From Rhodothermales bacterium (lineage in GTDB: Bacteria > Bacteroidota > Rhodothermia > Rhodothermales > VXPQ01): a stretch of 64,000 nt of DNA. The stretch spans positions 2,523,175-2,587,174 of the forward strand of contig OX638293.1 of assembly GCA_951812335.1 (NCBI GenBank), in the 5' to 3' direction. How positions within the stretch are numbered: position 1 is the first letter of the stretch; each line of letters starts with the position of its first letter. The notes beneath the pieces were generated by a model. That model worked only from the letters and a program-made list of their open reading frames with translations, did no database searches and had not been told where the DNA came from. The translations under genes were made by a program, and so were the position numbers. Below are positions 39,207 to 54,554 of the stretch, in pieces.

Positions 39207-40499
39207 ATGCGCATTACCCATGTAGAAGCCCGGGATATCCGGTTTCCCACCTCGCGGATGCTGGACGGATCGGATGCGGTGAATGTCGATCCCGATTACT
39301 CCGCCGCATACGTTACCCTCCGAACCGATCAGGACGGTCTCGAAGGCAACGGCCTTGCATTCACCTGCGGGCGCGGGACGGAAATCGTGGTCGCGACGAT
39401 CCGGGCCTTTACGCCGCTTGTCGAGGGACTAACCCTCGACGAAATCCGCGACGACATGCTGGGGTTCTGGCGGCGCCTGACCTCGGATAGCCAGATGCGG
39501 TGGCTGGGACCGGAAAAGGGAGTGATTCATCTTGCCACGGCAGCCATTACCAATGCCGTATGGGACCTGCTGGCCCGCTGCGACGAGAAACCGCTGTGGC
39601 GGTACTTGCTGGATATGCCTGTGGAGACGCTGGTGGCGTGTATCGAATTCCGGTACGTCACCGACCTGATTACGCCGGAGGAAGCGACGGATATGCTGCG
39701 GGCGCTCGCGCCTTCCCGCGCCTCCCGACTCGACGACTTGCATAAGAACGGATATCCCGCCTATACGACCAGCGCCGGCTGGCTGGGCTACTCCGACGAA
39801 AAGCTCCGTAAGCTATGCCGCGAAGGCGTTGCGCAGGGGTGGACCCGCTTCAAACAGAAGGTTGGCGCAAATATCGAGGACGACCGGCGGCGGGCGCGTA
39901 TTATCCGGGAAGAGATCGGGAAGGACGGCATCCTGATGATGGATGCGAACCAGTACTGGAACGTGGACGAGGCCATTCGCCATATGAACCGCTTGCGGGA
40001 GTTCGATCCGTACTGGATCGAGGAGCCGACCAGCCCGGACGACGTGCTGGGGCATGCCGCCATCGCCCAGGCTCTCCGGCCCATTCGCGTCGCGACCGGC
40101 GAACACGCGCAGAACCGTGTCCTGTTCAAACAATTCCTGCAGGCGGACGCTATCGGCGTGTGCCAGATCGACGCCTGCCGCCTGGGCGGCGTGAACGAGG
40201 TATTGGCGGTGCTGCTCATGGCTGCAAAATGCGGCGTACCGGTGTGCCCCCATGCGGGGGGCGTGGGCCTGTGCGAATACGTACAGCACCTGTCCGTTTT
40301 CGATTACGTGGCCGTAAGCGGGGAGCTGGAGCACCGCGTGCTGGAGTATGTGGATCACCTGCACGAGCACTTTGTCCATCCCGTAACGATCAAAGACGGG
40401 AACTACGTCGTGCCGGAAACGCCCGGCTACAGCATCGCGATGCACCCGGCTTCGCTCGACCGCTACGAGTATCCCCGAGGAGCGGCCTGGAAACAATAG
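39207..40499 (+). CDS. fucD: L-fuconate dehydratase (enolase superfamily, mandelate racemase subgroup)
   Basis: MRITHVEARDIRFPTSRMLDGSDAVNVDPDYSAAYVTL... with metal-ligand blocks MMDANQYW, IEEP and ATGEH. The overall pattern is as in characterised FucD. The ORF-track frame opens at 39111. Confidence 0.8.
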   Translation: MRITHVEARDIRFPTSRMLDGSDAVNVDPDYSAAYVTLRTDQDGLEGNGLAFTCGRGTEIVVATIRAFTPLVEGLTLDEIRDDMLGFWRRLTSDSQMRWLGPEKGVIHLATAAITNAVWDLLARCDEKPLWRYLLDMPVETLVACIEFRYVTDLITPEEATDMLRALAPSRASRLDDLHKNGYPAYTTSAGWLGYSDEKLRKLCREGVAQGWTRFKQKVGANIEDDRRRARIIREEIGKDGILMMDANQYWNVDEAIRHMNRLREFDPYWIEEPTSPDDVLGHAAIAQALRPIRVATGEHAQNRVLFKQFLQADAIGVCQIDACRLGGVNEVLAVLLMAAKCGVPVCPHAGGVGLCEYVQHLSVFDYVAVSGELEHRVLEYVDHLHEHFVHPVTIKDGNYVVPETPGYSIAMHPASLDRYEYPRGAAWKQ

Positions 40500-40530
40500 T
40501 TACCCGCTGCCGTACTGCCTGCCGATACCG

Positions 40531-40606
40531 GGGCCATAGCTCAGTTGGTAGAGCGCTACAATGGCATTGTAGAGGTCAGGGGTTCGATTCCCCTTGGCTC
40601 CACCAG
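40531..40606 (+). tRNA. tRNA-Ala (anticodon GGC), CCA encoded
   Basis: 73-nt cloverleaf GGGGCCA-TA-GCTC-AGTTGGTA-GAGC-G-CTACA-ATGGCAT-TGTAG-AGGTC-AGGGG-TTCGATT-CCCCT-TGGCTCC-A followed by CCA. It carries the G3:U70 alanine identity pair. Confidence 0.93.
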
Positions 40607-40684
40607 TCCGCCGGGACAAACAGGCGGGGTAAGCGGGTATATCGTATCCGCGACCTTGCAGAACGGCACATCTCCGTTTCCCGC

Positions 40685-41137
40685 TCACTCGTCATCCACA
40701 CCCGGATCTTCCTCCGTTTCGAGGAAGCGGGAAGCAAGATCCGGCGGAGGCGCCGAGCACGAAGCGCTTCGACCGAACCAGCGATAACGGTTACGAACAA
40801 GAAAACGGTAGGCCGCGTCTCGCAGCGGTCGGGGAATAATTTGCGCAAGGACGAGCAGGGACCAGGGAAAGCGCAGGTACCGGGCGATACGAAGGTTGGC
40901 GGTAGAATCGGTATGGATGCCGTTTTCGTCCACAAACACTACGCTGTCGGGAAGCGTTTCAAACTCGATTCCGGGGTCGGCCAAAGCGATAATGCGGCGG
41001 GCCGCAGGAGACCGGAGACGCGCAAAATGAAGCCGCTTGTGTTTTTCTCGTGATGCGGTCCAGCGAACGGCCGTGTTGCAGAAGTTGCACTCGCCGTCAA
41101 ACAGGATAACGGGGCGGGGATCGTCCATGGGGTCCAT
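40685..41137 (-). CDS. thiol-disulfide oxidoreductase DCC family (DUF393)
   Basis: ILFDGECNFCN motif near the N-terminus. The ATG at 41137 lies 1 nt after the upstream stop. The ORF opens at 41251. Confidence 0.7.
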   Translation of the reverse strand: MDPMDDPRPVILFDGECNFCNTAVRWTASREKHKRLHFARLRSPAARRIIALADPGIEFETLPDSVVFVDENGIHTDSTANLRIARYLRFPWSLLVLAQIIPRPLRDAAYRFLVRNRYRWFGRSASCSAPPPDLASRFLETEEDPGVDDE

Positions 41138-41138
41138 G

Positions 41139-42044
41139 TCAAGAATCCGGATGCGCCGCATCCGGATTCCACGGTCTGCCGATAGGCGCCCAGGGCGGCG
41201 CCGCTTCCTGCCGCATGGCCCCCAGTTGCTCGATTTCCAGGTCCACGACATAGCCCACCCGGAGATACCTCGGGGGCGTCATGGCCAGCCCGACTCCTTC
41301 CGGCGTGCCCGTGGAAAGAATGTCCCCCGGAAGCAGCGTCATGAAACGGCTCACGTAGCTTACGAGGAAAGGAACGGGAAAGATCATATCTGCGGTCGAA
41401 CTGTGCTGCATCTCCTCGCCGTTGACCGCAAGCCGCATATCCAGATCGTGTACATCGGCGATCTCGTCCGGGGTGACGAGCGCGGGGCCCAGCGGAGAAA
41501 AGGTGTCGCAACTCTTGCCCTTGACCCACTGCCCGCCCCGCTCGATCTGGTATTCCCGCTCGGAAACGTCGTTCATGATCGAATACCCCGCTACATACTC
41601 CAGCGCTTCGCTTTTCGCTACATACTTCGCCCGGCGCCCGATAATCACGGCCAGTTCGATTTCCCAGTCGGTTTTTCTCGAACCGCGCGGCAGTACGATG
41701 GGGTCGAACGGCCCGCTGAGCGACGAGCTCGCCTTCATGAACAATACCGGTTCCTCCGGCACGGCCATTTTCGATTCTTGCGCATGCTTGTGGTAATTCA
41801 GCCCGATGCAGATAATCTTGCTCGGGCGGGCTACCGGCGGCGCAAGACGCACGTTTGCATCGACCCGCGGCGCATCGGCGGCCTTGCCCGCCTCCAACCA
41901 TTTGCGCAACCGGGTGATACCATCCCCGACGAAAAACGCTTCGTCGTAGTCGTTGGCTACGGCAGAGGCGTCCACACGCGTTCCGTCCGGGAGCAAGAGG
42001 CCCGGCTTTTCGGCTCCGAGCGAACCGAATCGAATAAGTCGCAT
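41139..42044 (-). CDS. fumarylacetoacetate hydrolase family protein (candidate 2,4-diketo-3-deoxy-L-fuconate hydrolase)
   Basis: Starts MRLIRFG at 42044. FAH-fold blocks KIICIGLNYHKHAQE, WEIELAVIIG and GDILSTGTPEGVG. The specific role is inferred from the neighbouring SDR and fucD. Confidence 0.8.
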   Translation of the reverse strand: MRLIRFGSLGAEKPGLLLPDGTRVDASAVANDYDEAFFVGDGITRLRKWLEAGKAADAPRVDANVRLAPPVARPSKIICIGLNYHKHAQESKMAVPEEPVLFMKASSSLSGPFDPIVLPRGSRKTDWEIELAVIIGRRAKYVAKSEALEYVAGYSIMNDVSEREYQIERGGQWVKGKSCDTFSPLGPALVTPDEIADVHDLDMRLAVNGEEMQHSSTADMIFPVPFLVSYVSRFMTLLPGDILSTGTPEGVGLAMTPPRYLRVGYVVDLEIEQLGAMRQEAAPPWAPIGRPWNPDAAHPDS

Positions 42045-42076
42045 CGGAATAACGGATAATGGTCGATGATCGCAGA

Positions 42077-42883
42077 TCAGGGACGGAGCAGAATCGTCCC
42101 CCCGTCTATTGGAAAGATCGCCCCGGTAATGAATCCCGCCGCATCCGAGCACAGGTACAGCACCAACTCCGCCACTTCTTCCGGCGTTCCCATCCTTCCG
42201 ATGGGCTGCGCTGCGGCCAGCCGGTCATACATTTCCTGCTCCCTGCCCGGATAATTTTTTGCAAGGTATCCGTCCACGAACGGGGTGTGAATGCGGGCGG
42301 GAGCAATGGCGTTGCACCGTATGCCCTCCTGCAGATAGTCGCAGGCCACGGAAAGGGTCATGGTCAACACGGCCCCCTTGCTCATCGAATAGGCGAAGCG
42401 ATCCGGGATGCCGATGGTCGACACGGTCGAAGCCATGTTTACGATAGCGCCGCCCCGCCCGCACATTTCCTGCACTGCGGCCTGGAGGCAATGGTACACG
42501 CCTTTTACGTTGACCCGGTAGACCCGGTCGAAATCCTCTTCGGCGGTCGTCGCCACGGTGCCGACATGGGATACGCCGGCATTGTTGAACAGCACATCCA
42601 CAGGGGCGAGGTCCCCGGCGATAGCCCGGAAGGTTTCGTGCACGGCCTCCCCGTCGGACACATCGCAGGCATAGAAGGCCGCAGACGAACCCAGGTCGGC
42701 GGCCAGCGCCCGGCCCGCTTCCTCGTTCACATCCAGCAGAGCGACACGGGCGCCTTCCTGCGCAAACAACTCCGCCGTAGCTTTTCCGATGCCTGAAGCC
42801 GCGCCGGTCACCACCGCCGTACGACCCGAAAGCCGCCCTACGGGGCGATTCGCTTCCCGCATATCCGGAGCAGGCTGATTCAT
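42077..42883 (-). CDS. classical SDR oxidoreductase (candidate 2-keto-3-deoxy-L-fuconate dehydrogenase)
   Basis: VVTGAASGIG and the catalytic YSMSK. The specific role is inferred from context. Confidence 0.8.
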   Translation of the reverse strand: MNQPAPDMREANRPVGRLSGRTAVVTGAASGIGKATAELFAQEGARVALLDVNEEAGRALAADLGSSAAFYACDVSDGEAVHETFRAIAGDLAPVDVLFNNAGVSHVGTVATTAEEDFDRVYRVNVKGVYHCLQAAVQEMCGRGGAIVNMASTVSTIGIPDRFAYSMSKGAVLTMTLSVACDYLQEGIRCNAIAPARIHTPFVDGYLAKNYPGREQEMYDRLAAAQPIGRMGTPEEVAELVLYLCSDAAGFITGAIFPIDGGTILLRP

Positions 42884-42909
42884 ATTCCGTTTAGGATCAA
42901 AGTTATCCT

Positions 42910-44376
42910 TTATTCCTCGATGCGGGCGTCAAGCTGGGTCGGATAGGGATCCAACCCGGCCCGATGCTCCGCCACACGCGCGGCAATCTCTTCCAGCACC
43001 TCCGGGTGCTCTGCGGACACGTCGAACCGCTCGGACGGATCGTGCTCCAGATGATTCAAAATAGGCGTGTCGTGAGACACAGGATCGTCCCCGATGTAGG
43101 CCCGCTGCGTGATGAAGTGCGCTTTCCAGGGCCCCACTCGCGCGGCATAAATGCGCGTACCCCGATAGTACAGGATCATGTCGTGAGCATCCTCGTCACT
43201 TCCCCGGAGGATATTTCCAATATCTATCCCGTCGATCGTGCGGTCGTCCGGAACCGGCACGCCCGCCATACCCAGCACCGTGGGAAACACATCCATTGCC
43301 GTCACGAGCGCCGAATTAACCGCCCCCGCCGGGACCGTGCCGGGCCACCATGCAAGCGCAGGCGACCGCATGCCTCCCTCGTAGGTGGTGCCCTTGCCGT
43401 CCCGCAAAAGCCCCGCCGAACCGCCATGCGTGCGGAAAATAAGCCAGGGACCGTTGTCGCTCGTGAAGAAAACGAGCGTGTTCTCCGCAATGCCCTCTTC
43501 TTCGAGCGTCTGCATGACCTGCCCTACGCTCCAGTCGATCTCTTCGATCACGTCTCCGTAGAGCCCCGCCTTGCTATGACCGGCAAACGCGGCGCTTCGG
43601 AAAAGCGGCGTGTGCGGCATGGTGTGCGCCAGATACAGGAAGAACGGCTCCCCGGCATGGTCGCGGATGAAGGCCACGGCCTCCTGCGCATACCGACGGG
43701 TAATCGTTTCCTGGTCAACCGGGCGCTCGATGACTTCCGTATCGCGCAGCAGCGGCACATTCCAGTATTCGGATTTGGGCTCCCAGAATATTTCCTGCCA
43801 TTCGCCGCCTGCCACGCGATCCATGTCGTTGGAATAGGGAATCCCGTACCAGGAATCGAAGCCGTGGTTTGTCGGCAAAAACGGTTCGAGATGGCCGAGA
43901 TGCCACTTCCCTACGATGCCCGTAGCGTACCCGGCGTCCCTGAGCGCTTCCGCGATCGTAATTTCGCGCGCCGGCAGGCCCAGTTTGGAATCCGGGAAAA
44001 GCACCCGGCGCCGGTCGCTGGCCATCCCGCTCCGGATCGGCAGACGCCCGGTCAACAGCGCGGCCCGGCTGGGCGTACATACCGAAGCGCCCACATAAAA
44101 CTGGGTGAACTTCATCCCTTCCGCCGCCATGCGGTCCAGATGGGGCGTGCGGATCGTGGGGTGCCCGTATACCCCGATATCGCCGTAGCCGAGGTCGTCC
44201 GCAAAAATCAGGACCACATTCGGAGGACGATCTTCCTGCGCCGCCGCCGGACGCGCGGAACATGCCGTCAGGCATAGGAAAAATGCAGTACAGGCCAGGC
44301 AGCGAATGGCAAGCGATCGGAATCGAAACGCGAAAAACGCCGGATGGCGCATTGCATCAGGCATCGAAGCGAACAT
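42910..44376 (-). CDS. arylsulfatase A-type sulfatase
   Basis: FADDLGYGD and CTPSRAALLTGR. The start is uncertain: candidate ATGs at 44376, 44364 or 44352, and the ORF opens at 44523. Confidence 0.88.
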   Translation of the reverse strand: MFASMPDAMRHPAFFAFRFRSLAIRCLACTAFFLCLTACSARPAAAQEDRPPNVVLIFADDLGYGDIGVYGHPTIRTPHLDRMAAEGMKFTQFYVGASVCTPSRAALLTGRLPIRSGMASDRRRVLFPDSKLGLPAREITIAEALRDAGYATGIVGKWHLGHLEPFLPTNHGFDSWYGIPYSNDMDRVAGGEWQEIFWEPKSEYWNVPLLRDTEVIERPVDQETITRRYAQEAVAFIRDHAGEPFFLYLAHTMPHTPLFRSAAFAGHSKAGLYGDVIEEIDWSVGQVMQTLEEEGIAENTLVFFTSDNGPWLIFRTHGGSAGLLRDGKGTTYEGGMRSPALAWWPGTVPAGAVNSALVTAMDVFPTVLGMAGVPVPDDRTIDGIDIGNILRGSDEDAHDMILYYRGTRIYAARVGPWKAHFITQRAYIGDDPVSHDTPILNHLEHDPSERFDVSAEHPEVLEEIAARVAEHRAGLDPYPTQLDARIEE

Positions 44377-44479
44377 GGAATCGGCGGAATATTGCTGCAA
44401 GAAAAATTTGAACGGAAGAATATGCTTCCAAGCCCATAGACTTGTGCATAAAATACATGCGGGACAAACGGATTTCGCC

Positions 44480-45139
44480 TTATCCCTCCTTTTTCGCTTC
44501 CGCAACGCTCCGGCACAGCACACGCGCGTTTTCCGTCAGTTTGCCGAAGTTACCTTCTGCGATGGCCTGCTTGTCCAGCAGGGAAGACCCTACGCCCACC
44601 GCCACGGCTCCGGCGCGAATCCAGTCGCCCGCATTCTCCGGGGATACGCCCCCGGTGGGCATCAACTTCAGGTGGGGCATGGGCGCCAGCACCGCCTTGA
44701 AATACGACATCCCCACCACGCCGGAAGGAAACACCTTGACCACATCGGCCCCGGCCTCGGTCGCTTCGAGAATCTCCGTGGGGGAGAAAGCGCCGGGCAT
44801 CGCGGGCACGCCCCGTTCGTGCGCGGCGTCTATGAGTTCCTTCTTGTACACCGGGCTCACCACATACCGCGCCCCCGCGTCGACCGCCCGGTGCACGCCC
44901 GCCGCATCCAGCACGGAACCCACCCCGATCTCGACGTCGCTCATACTCCCCGCCACCTCCGCGATCGCCTGCAAGGCGCCCGGGGTCGTCATGGTGATTT
45001 CAATGGCGGTAACCCCTCCTTCCCGGATAGCGTCCACGACGCGGAGCACATGCGCAGCGTCGGGCAAACGCACCACAGCCACCACGCCGGTGGCGAGAAT
45101 TCGCTTCAGAACCGCTTCGCGGCGATGTACGGCGGACAT
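44480..45139 (-). CDS. eda: 2-dehydro-3-deoxyphosphogluconate / 4-hydroxy-2-oxoglutarate aldolase
   Basis: Starts MSAVHRREAVL at 45139. Blocks VVAVVRL...AIEITMTTPGA and the Schiff-base region VVKVFPSG. The ORF-track frame runs on through the tandem repeat to 45367. Confidence 0.85.
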   Translation of the reverse strand: MSAVHRREAVLKRILATGVVAVVRLPDAAHVLRVVDAIREGGVTAIEITMTTPGALQAIAEVAGSMSDVEIGVGSVLDAAGVHRAVDAGARYVVSPVYKKELIDAAHERGVPAMPGAFSPTEILEATEAGADVVKVFPSGVVGMSYFKAVLAPMPHLKLMPTGGVSPENAGDWIRAGAVAVGVGSSLLDKQAIAEGNFGKLTENARVLCRSVAEAKKEG

Positions 45140-45175
45140 AGTTGATCTCGATGAATTTTCGGATGCAAACCGGAG

Positions 45176-45307
45176 CATATCGCGCAAGACATTGCGCGTC
45201 CATATCCGGAAGCGACAAGGCATTGCGCGTCCATATCCGGAAGCGACAAGGCATTGCGCGTCCATATCCGGAAGCGGCAAGGCATTGCGCGTCCATATCC
45301 GGAAGCG
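45176..45307. repeat. 31-bp tandem repeat, about 4 copies
   Basis: The unit CATTGCGCGTCCATATCCGGAAGCGACAAGG occupies 45190-45220 and 45221-45251 (identical). A third copy at 45252-45282 has 1 substitution. A partial fourth copy lies at 45283-45307, and a degenerate partial copy at 45176-45189. Confidence 0.95.
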
Positions 45308-45406
45308 CCCGGCGCGAAAGCGCAAGATACGGCCTTGCGCCGGGAACCGGAAGAGATAAAGCGGCAATTCGACGGCGCTATCGTCATGGGCAGCCTGCCG
45401 CCGCCG

Positions 45407-48400
45407 CTACGCCTGCAACCCCGGCGACAGAGCAACCTCGACCGTATCGATCGCTCCATCGCGGCGGAATATGCTTTCGCTGGAGGCAGGGTCGAGCGTC
45501 GATCCGTCCAGAATGCGGGGGGCGCCGTCCCGGTCTGTAATGTGGATACTTGCCTCCTCAGCCACGCGATAGAAGAAGGGCGTCTGGCAACAGGTGAAGG
45601 CCAGCATACCCGGCAGGAGTTCCAGCGTCCGAAGGCGCCCGCCTGTATCGTACCAGCGGAATTCGGCAGGGTGCGTAAGAAATTCGGAGCGGCGCAGCAG
45701 CGTGGGCCGGAAACGGATCTTGCCGTCCCGGATCATGACCCCCAGTTCCCCCCAGCGGCACAGGATATCTTCCTTCACCTGCCCTGTCATGCCCGGCTGT
45801 TGCGCACCCGCATGCGCCGGCGTATGCGAATACGGATCGGAGGGAAAGGCCCCGAATTGCTCCGGCGTTCTGTGCATGCCCAATCCCCCGCGAATAGCGT
45901 AGTACTGTTCGACCAGGGCTTGTTGCACCGCCATGTCCTCCCCGGCGTCCTCCGCAGCCCGAAAACATTCCAGCACCGCAAGCAACAACTTGGACACCAT
46001 GTGCCAGTACACGCTTCCCAGACCCTCGTATCCGAAGAACGTGCCGGAGCGCCCGGTGTACGAGCGGTGATCGAACACGTCCTCGAACAGGGCAAGCACC
46101 GCGTCCCCATCCTGTTCGACCGCCTCGGCGTACCCCTCCCGCCGTAAGGTTTCGAGCGCGGCTTTCACGGAGTCCGCGTTACGGAAGGCGCCGTTGAAAT
46201 GCCACCCCCCTTCCCCGTCCTGCACGATCAACCGGCGATCGCCTGCGTCGGCCAGCGTCCGAAGGAGCGCGATGTCCTCCACCCGACCGGCTTCGAACCG
46301 GTTTTTTTCGATAAACCGGGGCAACGTGCGATCGGGATACAGCAGATAGGTGTTCCGGCGCGGACAATACAGCGGCCCGTCCCTCAGCGTCGATAACACC
46401 TCGAGCGCCTCCCTGCCCGAAAGCGTTCCGGCGCTCAGCACAGCGACCTGCCCTTCCAGCATCGCGTACATAGACCGAAGCGCCACCGTTTTCGGAGACG
46501 TAACCGACATCAGGCTGTAGGCATGAAACAACCCGTCGGGGCGCCGGGCGGTCCGGATACTGTGTTCCGCAAACGCCGAAGCGCGCCCAAGCAATGTCAG
46601 CACCGCATCGCGGCGCACGGCCCGCACCTCGCCGGAAAATCCATCCTCGTATATCTTCCCGCGATACGCGCTCCCCGCTTCGCCCAGCGCGTCCATCACC
46701 GTCCTCCGGTCTTCGTCGGTCCAGACCCCGGCCGCAAGATGTTCGTGCCGGCCGAGCGCTTCGGAAATCGTATCCATGAAACCGGCTGCTTCTTCGGAAA
46801 GCTCGAGGGTTTCGTGCGGCAGACCGGCGAAGAGATCGGCGACAACATCCACGAAACGCCGTACGTAACACAGCGTAACCATGGACACGCCGTACCCCAC
46901 GAGCGCATTATTCGCGTCGTTCCACTCCGGTCGCTGCGTGTTCATCCAGACGCCGCCGCCGGGAATGAAGCCGGTTAGCCGGGCCAGCAGCGTCACCAGC
47001 AATTTTTCGCTCAGATTGACCAGATACACATCGCCGTCGGGACCCGGAACGAGCTTGCCATCCCCCCCGATCTCCGCAACGCGCCGGGTGGAGCGCGCCG
47101 CCGACTCGTCGTCGAAATCGATCGTTTCGTGGGGGTTTTCCAGCATCTCGCGATACGGTCGAATGCGGTACGGTACATCCGCGTAGGCGAATATCTTCCG
47201 CGCAAGAAATTCCTCCAGTCTGCCGGGGTGATGCGCGCGGGAGCATTCGAGCAGTTTAAGCAGATAGGCGACCTGGTGATCGCCCCAATACCCGATGTAT
47301 GACCAGGGATCGTTGGGATCGAGCACCTCCCAGTCGATGCCGTCTTGCGTCAGACGGTAGGGATTGTATCCGTCGGGGGTCGATGCATTGACGAACTTGC
47401 AGACCATGCTTTCGACATATTCCGGATACGAAAAGGCCAGCGCCTCCCAGTTCTGGAAAATATCCCTCCAGTTGCCCTCGTAGGCGATTTTTCGCGAGCC
47501 GTCCTCGTTGTGCGTATCGATGGCGAAGCGGTTCCACGGACGACTCGGATCGCCATGGCGGCGTCCAAACGTAAGCGGCAGGTACTCGTGGCACAGGCGC
47601 TCCATCTGCGGATCGTGCAGGGATTCTGCTTCCGCAAGCAAACGGTGGACCGGCATCCGGTCGGGGAGTCCGGCGATCCATGCCTCATGCCGGGCGGCCA
47701 CGGAACTGTTGCGGCGATGCAGAAAGGACGTCAGATCGAAACGGGATATCAGGCCGTTTCCGACGAACACCCCGCCCCGCATCACATTGAACATCACATG
47801 CGAGAAGTGCCTCGCCGCCATCATCGGCTCGGCGGTACGCTGCAACCCGTCCCCGCCGGCCACGAGGCGAGCCAGCCGCTCGCCCCCTTCCCGGACATCC
47901 TGTTCTATCAGCGAAACAATGTCTGCGCTTCCCCGGGAGGGGTCGTTCAGCATGGCCCGCAACGCCACCGCATCGTCCGGCCCCTGTTTGACATCGGCGA
48001 CGATATACCAGACATGCTCGGTATCGGGCGTCGCGTCGAATGAAGCTTGCACAAAAAAGCCCCCTTTTATACCCCGCACATCCTCTTCTTGTTCCACGAA
48101 CGCTCCCTGCCGGAAGCGGTCCAGCTGGGCCGAAGACAAGAGGTGCGCCTCGGCCTCCAGCCCCACCGACCATGCCGCCGTAGCCATGAGCGCCTCGCTC
48201 GGTTCGGGCTTATCCACCGGGATGGAACTCAATACGAACAGGGCCGGGCCCGCCGGGCCATACCATTCGCTCTTCTTGTAGGCGTCCACCAGGTTGCTGC
48301 GGTCGGCTTGCAGAACCTGGGGAACTCCGTAGGGCAGAATATTCCGGATCCCGTCAAGAACCCGCACCCTTGCCTGCCCGGAGCCGGTATTGCGGAGCGC

Positions 48401-48928
48401 CGACCGCTTGACGAAACCGAATCGCCGGCTGGTGGCCCAGGTATACGCGAAGACAAGCTGGAGGTCGCGATTGATTTCCTCGTAGCGAATCTTGTGTCCG
48501 TACAGGCTCTTGTACAGATTACGCTCGACGGCATACGCTCCCCGATACCGATCCGAAAACGGCTCCCACAGCGCGTGTCCGTCCTGCCGCTCCACCAGCA
48601 GGATCGTTTTCCCGCCCACCTGATCCTGCGCATCGTGGATCTTGTCGTCCGTGCAATAGGGAAAAAGCGCCTGCTCGGCGGTACCTCTGCCTGCCGTCAG
48701 GCCCCCATTGCTCGACGCAAACAGCCAGTGATCGCCATCGCTGACCATCGACATGAAGAAAGGAGGCAATCGGTCGCACCGTCCGATCTTGTAGAACGTC
48801 TCGCCGTCGAGTTCGACGAACGCACCGGTGACCGGGCCATCGATATCCCGCATGGGGACGGCTCCCGCAAAAACGGGGGACCCCGGCGGCGGAGCCGGGG
48901 GCTTACGACTCCCACGGGATGCACTCAC
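45407..48928 (-). CDS. 1173-aa conserved-looking protein of unknown function
   Basis: Single uninterrupted ORF. The GTG start lies 2 nt after the stop of the upstream glycoside hydrolase (an alternative ATG is at 48853). There is no signal peptide and no motif I can assign. The only weak hint is GNWRDIFQNWEAL / WGDHQVAYLLKLLE, which is reminiscent of (alpha/alpha)6-barrel carbohydrate enzymes. Confidence 0.7.
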   Translation of the reverse strand: MSASRGSRKPPAPPPGSPVFAGAVPMRDIDGPVTGAFVELDGETFYKIGRCDRLPPFFMSMVSDGDHWLFASSNGGLTAGRGTAEQALFPYCTDDKIHDAQDQVGGKTILLVERQDGHALWEPFSDRYRGAYAVERNLYKSLYGHKIRYEEINRDLQLVFAYTWATSRRFGFVKRSALRNTGSGQARVRVLDGIRNILPYGVPQVLQADRSNLVDAYKKSEWYGPAGPALFVLSSIPVDKPEPSEALMATAAWSVGLEAEAHLLSSAQLDRFRQGAFVEQEEDVRGIKGGFFVQASFDATPDTEHVWYIVADVKQGPDDAVALRAMLNDPSRGSADIVSLIEQDVREGGERLARLVAGGDGLQRTAEPMMAARHFSHVMFNVMRGGVFVGNGLISRFDLTSFLHRRNSSVAARHEAWIAGLPDRMPVHRLLAEAESLHDPQMERLCHEYLPLTFGRRHGDPSRPWNRFAIDTHNEDGSRKIAYEGNWRDIFQNWEALAFSYPEYVESMVCKFVNASTPDGYNPYRLTQDGIDWEVLDPNDPWSYIGYWGDHQVAYLLKLLECSRAHHPGRLEEFLARKIFAYADVPYRIRPYREMLENPHETIDFDDESAARSTRRVAEIGGDGKLVPGPDGDVYLVNLSEKLLVTLLARLTGFIPGGGVWMNTQRPEWNDANNALVGYGVSMVTLCYVRRFVDVVADLFAGLPHETLELSEEAAGFMDTISEALGRHEHLAAGVWTDEDRRTVMDALGEAGSAYRGKIYEDGFSGEVRAVRRDAVLTLLGRASAFAEHSIRTARRPDGLFHAYSLMSVTSPKTVALRSMYAMLEGQVAVLSAGTLSGREALEVLSTLRDGPLYCPRRNTYLLYPDRTLPRFIEKNRFEAGRVEDIALLRTLADAGDRRLIVQDGEGGWHFNGAFRNADSVKAALETLRREGYAEAVEQDGDAVLALFEDVFDHRSYTGRSGTFFGYEGLGSVYWHMVSKLLLAVLECFRAAEDAGEDMAVQQALVEQYYAIRGGLGMHRTPEQFGAFPSDPYSHTPAHAGAQQPGMTGQVKEDILCRWGELGVMIRDGKIRFRPTLLRRSEFLTHPAEFRWYDTGGRLRTLELLPGMLAFTCCQTPFFYRVAEEASIHITDRDGAPRILDGSTLDPASSESIFRRDGAIDTVEVALSPGLQA

Positions 48929-48930
48929 GA

Positions 48931-50271
48931 TTACGACTCGACGTAGAAAGGAATATTGGCGTGGGCAGCGTGCCCCTCGCCGTCATACACATAGATAAAG
49001 AGGCGGTACGCGCCTTCCTCGGCGGGCGCCGTCAGCGTGACCTCCGGGGTATCCATACGGTCCAGCACGTTCTCTATGTGTTCGGGAACCTCCTCGTCAT
49101 CGCCTCCCGTGCTCTGCACCGTGCTCTCGCGGCGCATCTCCCATTCGTACCGCAGCGCATCGCCGTCCGGATCGACGGACGAGACCGAGGCCGCGTACGA
49201 CTGTCCGGGACGAAGATAAATGCCTTCGTGGGCCTCTTTGCCGTCAAGCAGGGCCTGCTCCAGACGGGGACTCCGGTTCTCGGGCCACGCCCCGTTCCAT
49301 ACGTAATGCATTACGTCGACGGTTTCGGTCTCTTCCCCCGTAGGCAAAAACATGCCGTACCAGGTCGGCGTGCGCTCCTGCTTTTGCCCCCACAGAAAAA
49401 CATACGACCCCACACACTGGTCCCGCATGGATTCGATGACGGTCCGGTAGCGCCTCAGGTAATCGTCGGCCTTGACGGAACTGTTGTTTTCGAGGGGCGC
49501 GCCCCAGGGCGTGCTCGGAACCTCCCAATGGCCGGTAGCGCCCCACTCGGTAACCATGAACGGCCCGTCCCATCCGATTTCTTCGATGTACCGGGGCAGA
49601 TTTTCGATATCCGCGTACATCTGGATACTGAGCAGGTCCAGGTCGGGAGCCCGCATCTTTATGTCGTCGGCCAGCTCCTGCCAGATCCCCGCCAGCATGG
49701 TGGTGGTCAAGTGGTTGGGGTCGATCTCGTGAATCATTTCCGAGATTTCGTTGACGGCGTCCCAGACGCGGGGGTTGGTTGCGCCGAGGTTAAGTTCGTT
49801 GCCGATGCCCCAGACGATCAACGCCGGATGATCCTTGTACTGCATGACTTCGGCCCGAATCCGTTCGAGTTGCTCCGCCACAGCCTCTTCGTCGTCGTAG
49901 TCGAATCCGAAAAACCCCCGTCCTTCGCCCTCGCGCTCCCGAGCGATCTCCAGGCCCATCGTAACCACCAGACCCGCCTCATGGGCACGGCGCAACACCT
50001 CGTCGCCCGTATCGCGCCCGTTGTCCGTACGCCATGTTCTGAACGAATTGGCCCCGTTCTGCGCCAACCGCTCTATATCGCCGAACTCGAGACCTGCCCC
50101 GTGGATGTAAAAAGGCTCCCCGTCCTTGAGCAGTTCGTAGCGGCCGTCCACCTGCCGCAATTCCATCTTGACCGGCCCTTCGACGGAAGGGGTTTCCGCA
50201 CTCGACCGGCACCCCGAAAGAACAAGCGTGGAGAGTAAGAGGCCTGCGATGGGACCATACGATGATTTCAT
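48931..50271 (-). CDS. clan GH-A (beta/alpha)8 glycoside hydrolase lipoprotein with C-terminal beta-sandwich
   Basis: Lipobox LVLSGC. Acid/base block VWGIGNELN and nucleophile block FMVTEWG. Confidence 0.75.
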   Translation of the reverse strand: MKSSYGPIAGLLLSTLVLSGCRSSAETPSVEGPVKMELRQVDGRYELLKDGEPFYIHGAGLEFGDIERLAQNGANSFRTWRTDNGRDTGDEVLRRAHEAGLVVTMGLEIAREREGEGRGFFGFDYDDEEAVAEQLERIRAEVMQYKDHPALIVWGIGNELNLGATNPRVWDAVNEISEMIHEIDPNHLTTTMLAGIWQELADDIKMRAPDLDLLSIQMYADIENLPRYIEEIGWDGPFMVTEWGATGHWEVPSTPWGAPLENNSSVKADDYLRRYRTVIESMRDQCVGSYVFLWGQKQERTPTWYGMFLPTGEETETVDVMHYVWNGAWPENRSPRLEQALLDGKEAHEGIYLRPGQSYAASVSSVDPDGDALRYEWEMRRESTVQSTGGDDEEVPEHIENVLDRMDTPEVTLTAPAEEGAYRLFIYVYDGEGHAAHANIPFYVES

Positions 50272-50293
50272 GATGTGTTATACTCGAGAACGT

Positions 50294-50329
50294 GAAGCGC
50301 CGGGCGAAGTGGTTTTGATCAGAGTATCC
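50294..50329 (+). repeat. dispersed repeat, 36-nt version (GAAGCGCCGGGCGAAGTGGTTTTGATCAGAGTATCC)
   Basis: Lies between the MFS stop (50397) and the GH start (50271). It is antisense to both genes. Confidence 0.8.
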
Positions 50330-50396
50330 GATAGTTGCCGGGACGGCATGTATGTAGGGGGTACAGCGTCGATCCGCGTGGAGGCGCCGGAGACGA

Positions 50397-51953
50397 TCAT
50401 TTCACGAGTATTTTTTCCAGTTCCTCCAGCGATTTCCCTTTCGTTTCCGGCAGCACCGCCATGACGAAAACGAATCCGACGGCAGCGAACAGACCGTAAA
50501 TCAGGAACGTCGGGGCGCTGCCGATCTGGGATAATTCCCACGGAAACACGAGTTGCACCGTAAAACTCACGGCGGAGTTGATCAGGCCCACGAAGGAAAT
50601 AGCCAGACCGCGAATGCGGTTGGGGAACAGTTCGGAAAAGAGCACCCACATCACCGGTCCGATCGACACCGCGAAAAAGGCGACGAAGGCGAGGATGCCC
50701 GCCAGGATCAGCCCGGGGTTAATGTCGATAGCAGCCGTGACCAGCGTACTTTCGTGCTGTCGGGCGGCCTCCTCGCCAAGCGCATCGGCCACGGCAGCCT
50801 TGAAGGCCACGTCGGAATCGTACGTCCGATCGGCCATGGATTCGAGCGCAACGGTTGGAACCTCTTCCGGCAGCGAAGCAATAGCATCCGGGGTAAGGGT
50901 ATAACTCGCCTGGAAGAATCCGAACGCCAGCACCAGCATGGACACGGTGACGCCGCCCAGCCCGACGGCGAGCAGCGGCTTGCGCCCGAGGCGGTCGATG
51001 AGCAATATGGCCAGTACGGTAAAAACAAGATTGGTCAAGCCGACCAGAATGGCCTGCATGAACGACGCGTTCGTGCCGATGCCGGATTGCTCGAAGATCA
51101 TCGGCGCATAGAAGAACACCGCATTGATGCCGGTGATCTGCTGGATGACAGCCACGACGACGCCAATAAGCAGCACCAGGCGAAGGGCCGGAGCGAACAA
51201 CTCGCGCAGGGGCGCTTTTACCTTGCCGGCGTCACTGGCGATGCTCGCTTTTACGGCTTGAATCTCCTCGTCCGCGCGTCCCTCGCCGCTGGCCCGAATC
51301 ATGATGGGCCGCGCCAGCGCCTCCCGTCCCCGCATGATCAGCCAGCGAGGACTTTCCGGCACGAAGAAGAGGCACGAGAAGTAGAGCACGGCGGGAAGCG
51401 TTTCCAGACCCAGCATCCAGCGCCAGTTCCAGGGGCCGAAGCGAAGCGCCTCCGCCCATGCCATGTCCGATTGCCCCAACAGCAGTACGAGGTAATTCGT
51501 AAAGAACGCCACCGAGATGCCGATCACGATATTCAATTGATTGAACGACACCAGCTTCCCCCGCACGGCCGGAGGCGAAATCTCGGCGATATACATCGGC
51601 GCAATGATGAGCGAGGCCCCTACCCCGAACCCTCCGATCATGCGGGCCGCCACCAGAAACCAGAAAGAAGGCGCCAGCGCGGAAGCGATCGCCGACACGG
51701 CATACAGTACGGCGGCGAAAAACAGCACCCGCCGACGCCCGAGGGCATCGCTCAGCGGGCCGGCCACCATCATGGCCAGGGTGGCCGTAAGGGTCAACGA
51801 ACTGACCGCCCAGCCGAGCTCCAGTTTGGTCAGGGTAAACTGCGTCTCGATGAATCCGACAACGCCGGATATGACCGAGGCGTCGAAGCCCATCAGAAAG
51901 CCCCCGAGGGCCACGATCAGGGCGGTACGGGTTATGTAGCTTCGATCAGGCAC
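50397..51953 (-). CDS. MFS sugar porter family transporter (sugar:H+ symporter)
   Basis: 518 aa with the signatures DALGRRRVL, PESPRWL and PETKGKSLEE. Confidence 0.9.
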   Translation of the reverse strand: MPDRSYITRTALIVALGGFLMGFDASVISGVVGFIETQFTLTKLELGWAVSSLTLTATLAMMVAGPLSDALGRRRVLFFAAVLYAVSAIASALAPSFWFLVAARMIGGFGVGASLIIAPMYIAEISPPAVRGKLVSFNQLNIVIGISVAFFTNYLVLLLGQSDMAWAEALRFGPWNWRWMLGLETLPAVLYFSCLFFVPESPRWLIMRGREALARPIMIRASGEGRADEEIQAVKASIASDAGKVKAPLRELFAPALRLVLLIGVVVAVIQQITGINAVFFYAPMIFEQSGIGTNASFMQAILVGLTNLVFTVLAILLIDRLGRKPLLAVGLGGVTVSMLVLAFGFFQASYTLTPDAIASLPEEVPTVALESMADRTYDSDVAFKAAVADALGEEAARQHESTLVTAAIDINPGLILAGILAFVAFFAVSIGPVMWVLFSELFPNRIRGLAISFVGLINSAVSFTVQLVFPWELSQIGSAPTFLIYGLFAAVGFVFVMAVLPETKGKSLEELEKILVK

Positions 51954-52044
51954 GGCATATACATATTCAACGTTTGGGAATCCCTAACATATCTCCCTTT
52001 GCGGCGGTATACAAATTTCTCGTCGGATGCACCGAAAAAAGAGG
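51632..52044. repeat. 413-bp direct repeat, copy A (5' 322 nt of the MFS gene plus 91 nt upstream)
   Basis: Base-by-base comparison with 54555-54967 gives 410/413 identical, at an offset of 2923 bp. Confidence 0.95.
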
Positions 52045-52788
52045 AATTACCGGGTTAACTTGACGGATCCTTGATCCAGCCCGTATGTTCCGTTTATGGA
52101 ATCTACCTAGACAAATCATGCAGCGTCGCGGCGGTCGTATCTTCGACGACCTCGGCCTTGATCTTGCCGGTCGCCCGATCTTTTGCGCCAACGACTGCCG
52201 TCTTGCCTACGACGCCCCTGCCTGCGTGCAGCTTTTTTGACTCGTGCTTGTTCGCTTCTTTGCCGCCGACGAACGTCTCGTCCACCTCTACCGGGCCGCC
52301 GAAGAGATTGTCTTCTCCGGCGTCGAACGCCTTGCGAATCCGTTGGAGCAGATGCCACGCGCTGCTCTGGTGAATATCTATGTCCCGTGCAATCTTCGTG
52401 CTCGATACGCCTTTCAGGCTCGTCATGTGCAGGTAGATGGCGTATACCCACTTGCGCAGCGGAAGCCGCGAGGCTTCCATGACCGTGCCAACCCTGACGC
52501 TGAAATACTTCCGGCAATCGGTGCACCAGTAGGGCATAGGCTTTGCAGCCTTCACCTCGCGGGTGCGGGTGCTCTTGCAGCGCGGGCAATGGCGCCCGTC
52601 GGGCCAGATGCGGGATTCGAACCACCGCCGGGCCGCTTCCTCGTCGGGAAACATCTCGGCCAACTGCATTACGGATATGCCGTTTCGATGTGTTCTGTGA
52701 GCCATGTTTTTGATCTCTCTATATTCGTTATAACTATCTGTAAATATAGGAACTTACATCAAAAATATCAAGTTAACCCGGTAATTCC
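52043..52788 (-). mobile_element. internally deleted IS1595-family element (746 bp) with perfect 21-bp terminal inverted repeats
   Basis: GGAATTACCGGGTTAACTTGA at 52043-52063 and its exact reverse complement at 52768-52788. The element encloses a truncated transposase. The flanking 8-mers differ, so there is no target-site duplication. Confidence 0.85.
52103..52705 (-). pseudogene. IS1595-family transposase, N-terminal 200 aa only (Zn-ribbon plus start of ISXO2-like domain)
   Basis: CPRC...C..C zinc ribbon, LPLRKWVYAIYL, and VEVDETFVGGKEANKH. The ORF ends at ...TLHDLSR, with only a short out-of-frame FHKRNIR remnant of the C-terminus before the IR. The DDE core is missing. Confidence 0.8.
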
Positions 52789-52835
52789 TTTTTCAGATAA
52801 TTTCACTTCCTTTTCATTTTTTTTGCGCCAGGGTC

Positions 52836-52864
52836 TTGACATTGCCGGATCGCCTCCTTACATT
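52836..52864 (+). promoter_or_regulatory. sigma70-type promoter-like element facing the cargo ORFs
   Basis: TTGACA (52836-41), a 17-nt spacer, then TACATT (52859-64). A direct ACATTGCC repeat spans both elements. Confidence 0.4.
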
Positions 52865-52928
52865 GCCATCCGGTGTGAGGATTTCCATAAATCCGGTTTT
52901 TGTACAACTTGCTTTTGGGGGGATTGCG

Positions 52929-53168
52929 ATGACTCATTTCTTACATACCTGCTGGGATTTTGCTAATACGCATTACTTCCTTGATCGGCCTCTCTCCTTC
53001 TATATTAAGGTCATTGTTCCTTTTATTCTTTTTATGTTGTTTTATGATACTGTTCATGCACAACAAAGGGGGCATCCTTGTAATCGAGCTTTTTCGAGTT
53101 ATAATGAAGCAAATTGTCGAAACTGCTTTGGGTCTTCAAGATTGGCAAGCTACCCCGAATATTTATAG
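52929..53168 (+). CDS. alternative small ORF (79 aa) with hydrophobic segment; may be a frame artefact of T-rich DNA
   Basis: ATG preceded by GGGGG. It encodes ...IKVIVPFILFMLFYDTVHA-QQRGHPCNRAF..., and overlaps the next ORF by 65 nt in another frame. Confidence 0.2.
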   Translation: MTHFLHTCWDFANTHYFLDRPLSFYIKVIVPFILFMLFYDTVHAQQRGHPCNRAFSSYNEANCRNCFGSSRLASYPEYL

Positions 53169-53478
53169 AAATTGGGACCCTTGGCTTGGAGGTTGGGGCT
53201 ATGGTTATGGTACGCCTGATCCTTGTTATCAGGATGCCGGGATGACTCGTCTTATTGGGGCTGGTGGTATAGTTGGAGGTTATGGAGCTAATTCGCCTTT
53301 AACTTCATTTTTTGGTGCTGTAACGTTTTATCAGGGAATTCGACAACATAATAATTGCTATGGTACTTCTGAGGATAATTGGAATTTCTTCGGATGGGGA
53401 CGTGGTTCTGATAACGACCCATCATCTTATTGTTCAGCTAGAGAAAGTCACTGTGATGATGGTGATCGTCGTGAATAA
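53104..53478 (+). CDS. Gly/Trp/Tyr-rich four-cysteine small protein (124 aa), unknown function
   Basis: MKQIVETALGLQDWQATPNIYRNWDPWLGGWGYGYGTPDPCYQDAGMTRLIGAGGIVGGYGANSPL...NNCYG...SYCSARESHCDDGDRRE. The ORF opens at a TTG at 52960, which would add a hydrophobic N-terminal helix. G+C is below that of the core genes. Confidence 0.4.
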   Translation: MKQIVETALGLQDWQATPNIYRNWDPWLGGWGYGYGTPDPCYQDAGMTRLIGAGGIVGGYGANSPLTSFFGAVTFYQGIRQHNNCYGTSEDNWNFFGWGRGSDNDPSSYCSARESHCDDGDRRE

Positions 53479-53549
53479 ACGATATGCTCTCGTGTGATTT
53501 ACAAGTTTTTTGTATCTCATCTTGAATTGAACGCTAGAGTATATCATTG

Positions 53550-54090
53550 GGAATTACTTGGCAAAGCCGCGTGGTATCCGAGCCAGCGCGTACGCGGGGC
53601 ATCTGTGTTTGTCGGTACGATTGAGATTGACGAATACCTACATGGGCGGTAAGGAAGCAAATAAGCACCGAAACAAGGAATCTTTCGCTTGACGCGGTAC
53701 AGCGAGCAAGGTGGCCGTCATGGGTGCAAAGCAGCAGGCTGGCGAGATCGTTTCCTGCCCTTATAGATTGGGGGCCAGAAGAGACGCTGGCCGGGTTCGC
53801 GCTCTAAATCCGGCCTAGCCCGGCGAAACAGTTTACACAGACGATCACAGAGCATACCGGAACCTGCGACATACATTCCGGGTCAGAATTTTTTTAAGCC
53901 ATACCCCTCAAGCGTGGATACAAGGACACGTTGCATAAAATCGGGCGGAAGCACCCCGACGGCTATGTCAACGAGATTGCCGGACGGCACAATATCCGGG
54001 GCTTCGATACACTGGACCAGATGGCTGCTATCGTGCGGGGCATGGACCAAAAACGTCCTCGGTACACCGTATCGCAGGATCCGTATACAG
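53550..54090 (+). pseudogene. decayed IS1595-family transposase (5'-truncated, frameshifted, internally deleted)
   Basis: Piecewise frames read ...AAWYPSQRVRGA..GTIEIDEY / MGGKEANKHRNKE / RGTASKVAVMGAKQQAGEI / PEETLAGFAL* / LKRGYKDTLHKIGRKHPDGYVNEIAGRHNIRGFDTLDQMAAIVRGM. These pieces are colinear with IS1595 transposases but are broken by stops. Confidence 0.7.
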
Positions 54091-54127
54091 GTAAAATGAC
54101 AAAGCCGAATAACTATGGTGCTCTATC

Positions 54128-54439
54128 ATGTCCTTGACTAAAATAAACTATATTGCATGGAGTCTTATCCTGATTCCTTGTTTGCAATTTGCATATAATA
54201 TAATTCATTATGTTAATCTTGGAGCTCCAGTAAGTGCTATCATTGTACCTGCTGTTAGCGGTTTTGTCACAAATTTTTTGTTATTTTTCTTTCTTGGACG
54301 TTTCATTGTACAAACGGCTATCAATAAGCGCATACTCCGTAGACTTGATGAATTGAATCGTGCTTCTGCGCCTCCGGGCTATCCGGAAACTCTTGAGGAA
54401 CTGGACTCTCAACCGGGCGCACGCTCGGGCGATTCTTGA
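54128..54439 (+). CDS. small two-TM membrane protein (103 aa), unknown function
   Basis: Helices INYIAWSLILIPCLQFAYNIIHYV and VSAIIVPAVSGFVTNFLLFFFLGRFIV, followed by a charged tail. This is the most AT-rich gene in the window. Confidence 0.45.
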   Translation: MSLTKINYIAWSLILIPCLQFAYNIIHYVNLGAPVSAIIVPAVSGFVTNFLLFFFLGRFIVQTAINKRILRRLDELNRASAPPGYPETLEELDSQPGARSGDS

Positions 54440-54554
54440 GTCATTCCCTGCATTTGCCTTCGCGCTGGCGCGAGCGAGAGCACGTTCCCGGGCCGGCTGC
54501 CCCAGTGCGATCTTGGTGGCCCGTGCACCTGGCTATCGTTGCACACCCTATCCT

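Follow-up and report, generated by a model that had tools for sequence, protein, structure and literature searches.

A predicted GH149 beta-1,3-glucan phosphorylase gene adjoining GH158 glucanase and sugar-porter genes in a Rhodothermales bacterium

The bacterial GH149 beta-1,3-oligosaccharide phosphorylase Pro_7066 has been both crystallised (PDB 6HQ6/6HQ8) and biochemically characterised (PMC5827456, PMC6771811), and the recognition of the sugar 1-phosphate by its RD motif, as well as the roles of its WND loop and a His residue, have been defined (PMC6771811). Another member of the family, EgP1 from Euglena gracilis, is a eukaryotic beta-1,3-glucan phosphorylase described as having another chain-length preference (PMC5827456). 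In clan GH-Q, the GH94 and GH161 families, which comprise laminaribiose, cellobiose, and cellodextrin phosphorylases and, in GH161, beta-1,3-glucan phosphorylases such as 9QQK, share the (alpha/alpha)6 fold and inverting phosphorolysis with GH149, and the domains Dom 1 and Dom 2 of GH149 are missing from GH94 (PMC6771811). Laminarin loci of marine Bacteroidota and Gammaproteobacteria, such as the Formosa agariphila PUL, carry GH149 together with GH158, GH16_3, GH17, GH30_1, and GH3, and the joint presence of GH149 and GH158 is already taken to indicate a laminarin PUL (PMC10108472; bioRxiv 10.64898/2026.01.10.698779; PMC5827456).

Herein, we analyzed a 64,000-nt stretch of Rhodothermales bacterium DNA (the window), the longest open reading frame of which encodes a 1173-aa protein, the runner-up being 949 aa. 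A preliminary description of this window had correctly reported the extent, the GTG start, and the size rank of this frame, leaving its minus-strand location unstated, and had likewise recognised that the protein bears no signal peptide, as inspection of the sequence revealed no hydrophobic N-terminal stretch. An in-frame ATG occurs at codon 26, position 48853, and gene callers have taken this start in several close relatives, giving proteins of 1148 aa. A motif found near the N-terminus throughout the family, P-x-[FY]-x-G (here PVFAG at residues 18-22), is located 5' of this ATG, and its G22 is kept in at least 90% of sequences. In addition, M26 is replaced by I, L, or A in 6 of the 10 close relatives, whose starts lie at the GTG-equivalent position, and the GTG is the sole ATG/GTG/TTG codon in the open frame 5' of the PVFAG motif. 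These three features of the sequence thus supported the GTG as the start codon. The codon-26 ATG, called as the start for relatives P0001, P0003, P0005, and P0006, was rejected as the true start, because it would delete the family-conserved PVFAG and because the Met is absent from most close relatives; in several database relatives, the start codon has apparently been called 25 codons too far downstream.

To assign the protein to a family, it was compared with NCBIfam, PDB, and Pfam. The NCBIfam equivalog profile NF058639.1 (GH149 1,3-beta-D-glucan phosphorylase; cutoff of 1150 bits) matched it end-to-end with a score of 1546.9 bits, residues 33-1167 being aligned on positions 5-1133 of the 1134-position profile. 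Pro_7066 (6HQ6/6HQ8) matched with 1185 bits (residues 26-1167 on chain 32-1169); over 1141 aligned residues the two proteins are 46.7% identical, and the alignment has 8 gap positions overall. At least 8000 homologues occur in the databases. On the strength of this profile match and the 6HQ6 match, the protein was assigned as a GH149 beta-1,3-glucan phosphorylase, with GH94 and GH161 as its relatives in clan GH-Q. It therefore belongs to an already known family, and the earlier view of it as an orphan without a family, possibly founding a new one, had to be abandoned. The orphan impression arose because a Pfam scan, with E values of up to 1 allowed, gave no match, and the NCBIfam and PDB matches settled the family. 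Pfam has neither a GH149 nor a GH158 model, so that such genes look orphan in Pfam-only pipelines, an appearance to which the unnamed or "hypothetical protein" public records of the relatives add. A GH161 chain and a "cellobiose phosphorylase" chain in the PDB matched residues 546-799 only (~1e-11), which is consistent with kinship within clan GH-Q; with such local and weak matches, the protein is a member of neither GH94 nor GH161. GH94 membership in particular was rejected, as no full-length match was found, the sole possible GH94 match in the PDB was the local one to the "cellobiose phosphorylase" chain, and the Pfam scan was empty.

Residues were mapped onto Pro_7066 by alignment, and motif conservation was judged on an alignment of 26 diverse homologous sequences. 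As shown in Table 1, the protein has the RD, WND, and His motifs of Pro_7066 unchanged, and D671 of the WND loop aligns with the predicted catalytic residue D653. The two segments quoted in the preliminary description, GNWRDIFQNWEAL and WGDHQVAYLLKLLE, were found to start at residues 485 and 548, respectively, and the "WRD" segment singled out there, within GNWRDIFQNWEAL, is the RD motif. The predicted N-terminal beta-sandwich, linker, (alpha/alpha)6 barrel with Dom 1 and Dom 2, and C-terminal jelly roll could all be aligned with those of Pro_7066, the alignment being unbroken through the two insert regions peculiar to GH149, and both proteins have no signal peptide. They differ, however, in approximately 53% of residues and in the longer Pro/Gly-rich N-terminal extension that precedes PVFAG in the present protein. 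At the surface oligosaccharide-binding site, Y841/E990/Y993/E994 of Pro_7066 correspond to N859/E1007/Y1010/A1011, so that two of the four residues are kept. With EgP1, likened by description, the protein would share the family, the catalytic apparatus, and beta-1,3-specific phosphorolysis.

Table 1. Features of the locus, with positions in the window
Feature	Position	Strand	Remarks
Predicted GH149 beta-1,3-glucan (laminari-oligosaccharide) phosphorylase gene	45407..48928	-	1173 aa; GTG start; without signal peptide
RD motif, R488-D489	47462..47467	-	R470/D471 of Pro_7066; invariant in 26 sequences
WND catalytic loop, W669-N670-D671	46916..46924	-	W651-N652-D653 of Pro_7066; invariant in 26 sequences
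H976, YWHM motif	46001..46003	-	H959 of Pro_7066, predicted phosphate recognition; invariant in 26 sequences
2-nt spacer TC	48929..48930	-	Between TAA stop of GH158 gene and GTG start of GH149 gene
Predicted GH158 (clan GH-A) beta-1,3-glucanase lipoprotein gene	48931..50271	-	446 aa; directly upstream of GH149 gene
MFS sugar-porter-family transporter gene	50397..51953	-	518 aa; upstream of GH158 gene; Pfam Sugar_tr 356.9 bits, TIGR00879 347.9 bits
KDPG/KHG aldolase gene	44480..45139	-	~219 aa from ATG at 45139; Pfam Aldolase 149 bits, TIGR01182 189 bits
Sulfatase gene	42910-44523		Downstream of GH149 gene
Two further sulfatase genes	32991-36568		

The preliminary description had named the neighbours accurately: the sugar porter is of the MFS type, sulfatases are present, the fucose-type pathway consists of SDR, FAH, and MR_MLE genes, and the lipoprotein belongs to clan GH-A. 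The lipoprotein could be placed more precisely. It matched PDB 9ORO, GH158(Pro), with 320.7 bits (E 1.5e-94, residues 33-445) and PDB 6PAL with 248 bits, and the catalytic residues of GH158(Pro), Glu143 and Glu229 (PMC13195107), have their counterparts in its E159 (GNE, acid/base) and E242 (VTE, nucleophile), respectively. Based on the similarity to GH158 structures, in which a TIM barrel is joined to an Ig-like domain, and on the GH-A catalytic pair, it was assigned to GH158 by comparison; Pfam returned a weak Glyco_hydro_2_C match and nothing further. By inspection, its signal sequence contains the lipobox LSGC with Cys21. The 2-nt distance between its stop and the GTG of the GH149 gene, as had been reported, is repeated in two related loci (L081 and L046); in L002, L066, L006, and L031, the starts overlap or lie close. 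From this spacing, the GH158 and GH149 genes may be translationally coupled. The MFS, GH158, and GH149 genes may also be co-transcribed as an operon. A promoter consensus scan of positions 44400-52200 gave 4 promoter-like sites against 1.8 expected, and a terminator scan of the same region gave 8 terminator-like sites against 6.6 expected, neither of which exceeds the background; the host may use promoters that are not of the sigma-70 type.

Downstream of the GH149 gene, the KDPG/KHG aldolase gene lies at a distance of 267 nt, and the genes for an SDR, an FAH-family hydrolase, an MR_MLE dehydratase, and a sulfatase are all situated within 6 kb. The ORFs of the window that were scanned included no beta-glucosidase, phosphoglucomutase, or glucokinase, and no SusC/D pair, GH16, GH17, GH30, or GH3 gene was found adjacent to the MFS-GH158-GH149 cassette. 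The window also contains a CarboxypepD_reg-type TonB receptor, DUF4249, and DUF5916, which give a slight hint of the Bacteroidota/Rhodothermota group. As in the known laminarin loci, GH149 is placed beside a beta-1,3-glucanase and a transporter. In contrast to those loci, the cassette is minimal, consisting of MFS, GH158, and GH149, and is bordered by a fucose/sulfatase module; moreover, its transporter is a sugar-porter (PF00083) MFS, whereas type II clusters have been described with PF13347-type MFS.

Synteny was then counted over 81 related loci, in which homologues within 8 kb of the GH149 gene were considered. GH158 and MFS homologues were each present in 20 of the 81 loci. In 12 loci, GH158 lies directly upstream of GH149 on the same strand, with an MFS gene upstream of GH158 in 11 of these 12, and the MFS-GH158-GH149 order was found in Rhodothermales, Verrucomicrobiota, and Flavobacteriaceae loci. 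The aldolase, SDR, and FAH neighbours recurred only in a relative with 91% identity; apart from this relative, the sulfatase gave a weak match in one locus, and MR_MLE was found in none. The gene order therefore favoured GH158 and MFS as the partners of GH149 and led us to reject the connection with fucoidan, sulfatases, and fucD drawn in the preliminary description. These results indicated that the fucose and sulfatase genes bordering the cassette are a separate, unrelated module. The aldolase is a doubtful member of the cassette, its gene adjoining GH149 elsewhere only in the close relative L081.

Taken together, the protein is very probably a cytoplasmic GH149 beta-1,3-glucan phosphorylase performing the last step of a three-gene utilisation cassette for laminarin or related beta-1,3-glucan. 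The function is assigned by homology, as the nearest characterised enzyme to the protein and its clade of 78-91% identity is 46.7% identical. In the proposed pathway, the GH158 lipoprotein would cleave beta-1,3-glucan (laminarin) outside the cytoplasm into short laminari-oligosaccharides. GH158(Pro), the solved protein nearest to it, gives laminaribiose as the main product (PMC13195107), and BuGH158 is a predicted cell-surface endo-beta-1,3-glucanase (PMC7157763). The products of GH158 would be moved across the inner membrane by the MFS transporter, upon which the GH149 enzyme, using inorganic phosphate, would release the non-reducing glucose as alpha-D-glucose 1-phosphate. In this reaction, D671 would act as the general acid, R488 and D489 would hold the glucosyl-phosphate site, and H976 is predicted to recognise phosphate. 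Phosphorolysis would spare one ATP per bond relative to hydrolysis, and glucose 1-phosphate and the leftover glucose would enter central metabolism. Monosaccharides are the best-known cargo of MFS transporters of the sugar-porter family, and disaccharide import by this one is accordingly our inference; the substrates, the transporter cargo, and the position of GH158 in the cell envelope are likewise proposed here as the most plausible ones. The earlier proposal of a cytoplasmic (alpha/alpha)6-barrel phosphorylase for imported oligosaccharides hence stands as to the type of enzyme, GH149 being just this, and falls as to the new family and fucoidan.

A true GH149 enzyme could also have a clade-specific substrate other than plain linear laminari-oligosaccharides, such as beta-1,3-glucan fragments with beta-1,6 branches, mixed beta-1,3/1,4 linkages, or other decorations. 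Its own clade (P0001-P0010, 78-91% identical) is indeed set apart from the rest of the family (at most 66%), the two exchanged surface-site residues differ from Pro_7066, a sulfatase gene is nearby, and GH158(Pro) also cuts mixed-linkage glucans (PMC13195107). However, no variation occurs in the donor-site and catalytic motifs, the profile score is far over the equivalog cutoff, no acceptor-site difference was identified, and the residues of the surface site vary across the family in many members (PMC6771811), so that we consider such a substrate highly improbable. A mainly synthetic role in vivo, in which glucose 1-phosphate would be built into a beta-1,3-glucan store inside the cell, is brought to mind by the Euglena homologue, whose host makes paramylon. 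On the contrary, GH149 is tightly linked in many phyla to genes for a sugar importer and a secreted beta-1,3-glucanase. Such linkage is the signature of a catabolic locus, and such loci are expressed in laminarin-rich algal blooms (PMC10108472), which makes a synthetic role very improbable here. Finally, a new cytoplasmic family handling imported fucoidan-derived, sulfated fucose oligosaccharides, to which the missing Pfam model and the sulfatase and L-fucose genes on the downstream side (Table 1) had lent some credit, can practically be dismissed, because it is refuted at the family level by the full-length GH149 matches, its fucose-type neighbours are nearly confined to the one 91%-identical relative, the immediate and tightly linked partner of GH149 is a beta-1,3-glucanase, and characterised GH149 enzymes act on beta-1,3-glucosides only (PMC5827456).

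Returning to the laminarin cassette, its recurrence allows a tentative, rather doubtful generalisation: MFS-GH158-GH149 might be a self-contained, SusC/D-less laminaribiose-phosphorolysis unit spread across phyla (Rhodothermales, Verrucomicrobiota, and Flavobacteriaceae), in which a PF00083 MFS imports the beta-1,3-disaccharide or oligosaccharide and the hydrolase and phosphorylase genes are translationally coupled in high-GC lineages. The correct labels would be GH149 1,3-beta-D-glucan phosphorylase and, for its neighbour, GH158 beta-1,3-glucanase, and the significance beyond annotation is small. The combination of GH149, GH158, and MFS would mark this organism as a consumer of laminarin or beta-1,3-glucan, which is a common trait of ecological importance for the marine carbon cycle.

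The product of the longest ORF in the window (runner-up, 949 aa) looked like an orphan because a Pfam scan of the protein gave no match. The NCBIfam equivalog NF058639.1 ("1,3-beta-D-glucan phosphorylase, GH149 family") matched residues 33-1167 over profile positions 5-1133 of 1134 with 1546.9 bits (curated cutoff, 1150), and a PDB sequence search aligned residues 26-1167 with chain positions 32-1169 of 6HQ6/6HQ8, the "bacterial beta-1,3-oligosaccharide phosphorylase" Pro_7066, at 1185 bits. These matches refuted the preliminary description of the protein as an orphan possibly founding a new family; its intuition about fold and mechanism, an (alpha/alpha)6-barrel phosphorylase or hydrolase, proved right. 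BLASTP against the Pro_7066 chain segment, rebuilt from the printed PDB-search alignments, showed 46.7% identity over 1141 positions with 8 gap positions, and the alignment ran unbroken through Dom 1 and Dom 2, the GH149-specific inserts in the (alpha/alpha)6 barrel (PMC6771811). Weak local matches (E ~1e-11, residues 546-799) to GH161 and "cellobiose phosphorylase" chains in the PDB search fit clan GH-Q kinship. The family was very large, with at least 8000 database proteins at E <= 1e-10 from taxa including Bacteroidota, Rhodothermales, Verrucomicrobiota, Gammaproteobacteria, Acidobacteriota, Chloroflexota and archaeal MAGs, and the named homologues were mostly labelled "hypothetical protein".

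In Pro_7066, the WND catalytic loop comprises W651, N652 and D653, the last being the predicted catalytic residue, the RD motif (R470, D471) serves sugar 1-phosphate recognition, and H959 is predicted to recognize phosphate (PMC6771811). Once the 19-residue offset introduced by the tag in the PDB chain was corrected, the equivalent residues were W669-N670-D671, R488-D489 and H976, all invariant in an alignment of 26 sequences (A1). Both peptide segments that had been quoted as hints were found, beginning at residues 485 and 548, and the "WRD" of the first was the RD motif itself. At the surface-binding site, which varies within the family (PMC6771811), E990 and Y993 of Pro_7066 were kept as E1007 and Y1010, whereas Y841 and E994 were replaced by N859 and A1011.

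The ORF itself had been described accurately: 1173 codons opening with GTG, separated by "TC" from the TAA stop of the upstream GH158 gene, and encoding an N terminus (VSASRGSRKPPAPPPGSPVFAGAVPMRDIDG...) without a hydrophobic signal-like stretch, in line with the reported lack of a signal peptide. An in-frame ATG preceded by GGGAG lies at codon 26 (48853, versus 48928 for the GTG), and the public gene calls of four close relatives (P0001, P0003, P0005 and P0006; 1148 aa) begin at its equivalent. Six other close relatives (78-89% identical) carry I, L or A in place of M26 and start 22 residues farther upstream; their opening residues, M-[RG]-[AV]-S-[SGI]-G, correspond in the alignment to V-S-A-S-R-G here. 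Upstream of M26, a P-x-[FY]-x-G motif recurs across 26 diverse family members (here PVFAG, residues 18-22; G22 conserved in at least 90%), and the GTG is the sole ATG/GTG/TTG between the upstream in-frame stop and this motif. The GTG is therefore favoured and the codon-26 ATG disfavoured. The 1148-aa calls omit about 25 N-terminal codons including the motif, and to judge from these alignments the starts of several database relatives were probably mis-called. Codons 11-24 of GH149, within the N-terminal extension, also contain a GC-rich hairpin followed by CCCCGTTTTT, flagged by a terminator scan that was overall at background level; in this segment the gene also differs from close homologues by a 3-codon indel.

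The GH158 protein (446 aa) matched only a GH2 TIM barrel, weakly, in Pfam, but it matched strongly the GH158 structures 9ORO (GH158(Pro), 320.7 bits, residues 33-445) and 6PAL (248 bits); its N terminus, MKSSYGPIAGLLLSTLVLSGC, bears a lipobox. GH158 enzymes have beta-1,3-glucanase activity. BuGH158 is a predicted cell-surface endo-laminarinase (PMC7157763), and GH158(Pro) yields almost solely laminaribiose (PMC13195107). Upstream of GH158 lies a sugar-porter MFS transporter gene (518 aa; Pfam Sugar_tr, 356.9 bits; TIGR00879, 347.9 bits).

To assess synteny, the window proteins were compared by tblastn with 81 loci, namely 80 GTDB species representatives and L081, the contig encoding P0001 (91% identical). 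Homologues of GH158 and of the MFS transporter each occurred within 8 kb of GH149 in 20 of the 81. In 12 loci, belonging to Rhodothermales, Verrucomicrobiota/Limisphaerales and several Flavobacteriaceae, GH158 stood immediately upstream on the same strand, and the MFS gene preceded it in 11 of these; a Lewinellaceae locus (L001) shared this gene order, with an additional gap separating GH158 from GH149. The 2-nt spacing recurred in L081 and a Verrucomicrobiia locus (L046), and overlapping or closely spaced starts in L002, L066, L006 and L031, whereas the flavobacterial spacers were 70-170 nt. This pattern makes translational coupling plausible in high-GC lineages.

The KDPG aldolase, SDR and FAH hydrolase genes recurred in L081 alone, MR_MLE had no tblastn match in the 81 loci, and the only sulfatase match outside L081 was weak (30% identity, L036). 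These counts mark the sulfatase/fucose block as a neighbour specific to the lineage rather than a conserved partner, and the proposed link to fucoidan falls. The block is a separate module beside the cassette (39111-44523 and 32991-36568), not conserved next to GH149 outside the closest relative; its genes, for the MR_MLE-family dehydratase, the FAH-family protein, the SDR and three sulfatases, fit a non-phosphorylative L-fucose/L-rhamnose-type pathway combined with desulfation.

Features of the window
Feature	Position	Strand	Remark
ORF, 550 aa	5354-7006	-	coding-like GC3; no Pfam family
Sulfatase	32991-34763	-	
Sulfatase	34907-36568	-	
ORF, 771 aa	36633-38948	-	coding-like GC3; DUF5916 match only
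MR_MLE-family dehydratase	39111-40499	+	
tRNA-Ala (GGC)	40530-40605	+	between MR_MLE and FAH genes; sole Rfam or ARAGORN match
FAH-family 2,4-didehydro-3-deoxy-L-rhamnonate-hydrolase-like protein	41139-42152	-	
SDR	42077-42883	-	
Sulfatase	42910-44523	-	
KDPG/KHG aldolase	44480-45139	-	
31-nt tandem repeat	45185-45307		4.0 copies, 97% matches, TRF score 232
Hairpin GCGCAAG-GCCGTAT-CTTGCGC	45320-45340	-	about 70 nt past GH149 stop
GH149	45407-48928	-	
GC-rich hairpin and following segment	48879-48896	-	within GH149
GH158	48931-50271	-	
MFS transporter	50397-51953	-	
413-bp direct duplication	51632-52044, 54555-54967		3 mismatches
26-nt inverted repeats	52038-52063, 52768-52793		at insert
Insert between duplicates	52045-54554		2.5 kb, GC 0.40-0.55
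IS1595-type transposase fragment	52103-52705	-	in insert
Truncated MFS N-terminal ORF	54409-54876	-	99% identical to intact gene
ORF, 949 aa	59143-61992	+	coding-like GC3; no Pfam family
ORF, 503 aa	62385-63896	+	coding-like GC3; no Pfam family

Downstream of GH149, the spacer between its stop (45407) and the aldolase ATG (45139) holds a 31-nt tandem repeat in perfect register, whose unit contains CTTCCGGATATGGACGCGCAATG on the minus strand (4 exact matches versus 0 expected) and whose last copy overlaps the palindrome CGCGCAA-TGTC-TTGCGCG; L081 has one diverged copy in the same place. One possible role for the repeat is that of an expanded operator or promoter element serving the aldolase gene. 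The nearby hairpin, identical in L081 despite diverged flanks, may act as a terminator or attenuator, its T tail being weak; the consensus terminator scan left it unflagged. At the other, upstream end of the cassette, the 413-bp duplication takes in the opening 322 nt of the MFS gene and 91 nt upstream, and the copies are separated by lower-GC DNA; in L081 the MFS gene directly follows valS. Either an insertion was accompanied by an unusually long duplication here, or the arrangement is an assembly artefact; the cassette may in this way be cut off from its original promoter. Scans of 44400-52200 for consensus promoters and terminators were not above background; co-transcription of the cassette is presumed.

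Both the enzyme family and the locus type are already known. The founding paper on GH149 placed the bacterial genes in clusters that also encode sugar transporters and beta-1,3-glucanases or beta-glucosidases, and located the Bacteroidetes copies in PULs (PMC5827456); GH149 and GH158 jointly serve as laminarin-PUL markers in marine studies (PMC10108472), and the Formosa agariphila laminarin PUL contains GH16_3, GH17, GH30_1, GH149 and GH158 (bioRxiv 10.64898/2026.01.10.698779). Since Pro_7066 uses acceptors from Glc to G6 with similar efficiency (PMC5827456), laminaribiose is a good substrate. The locus is a minimal, SusC/D-less cassette whose sugar-porter-type MFS protein is the presumed disaccharide importer. 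GH158, anchored outside the cytoplasm, would cut laminarin into short oligosaccharides, probably mainly laminaribiose, the transporter would import these products, and GH149 would phosphorolyse them to alpha-glucose 1-phosphate and glucose or a shortened chain.
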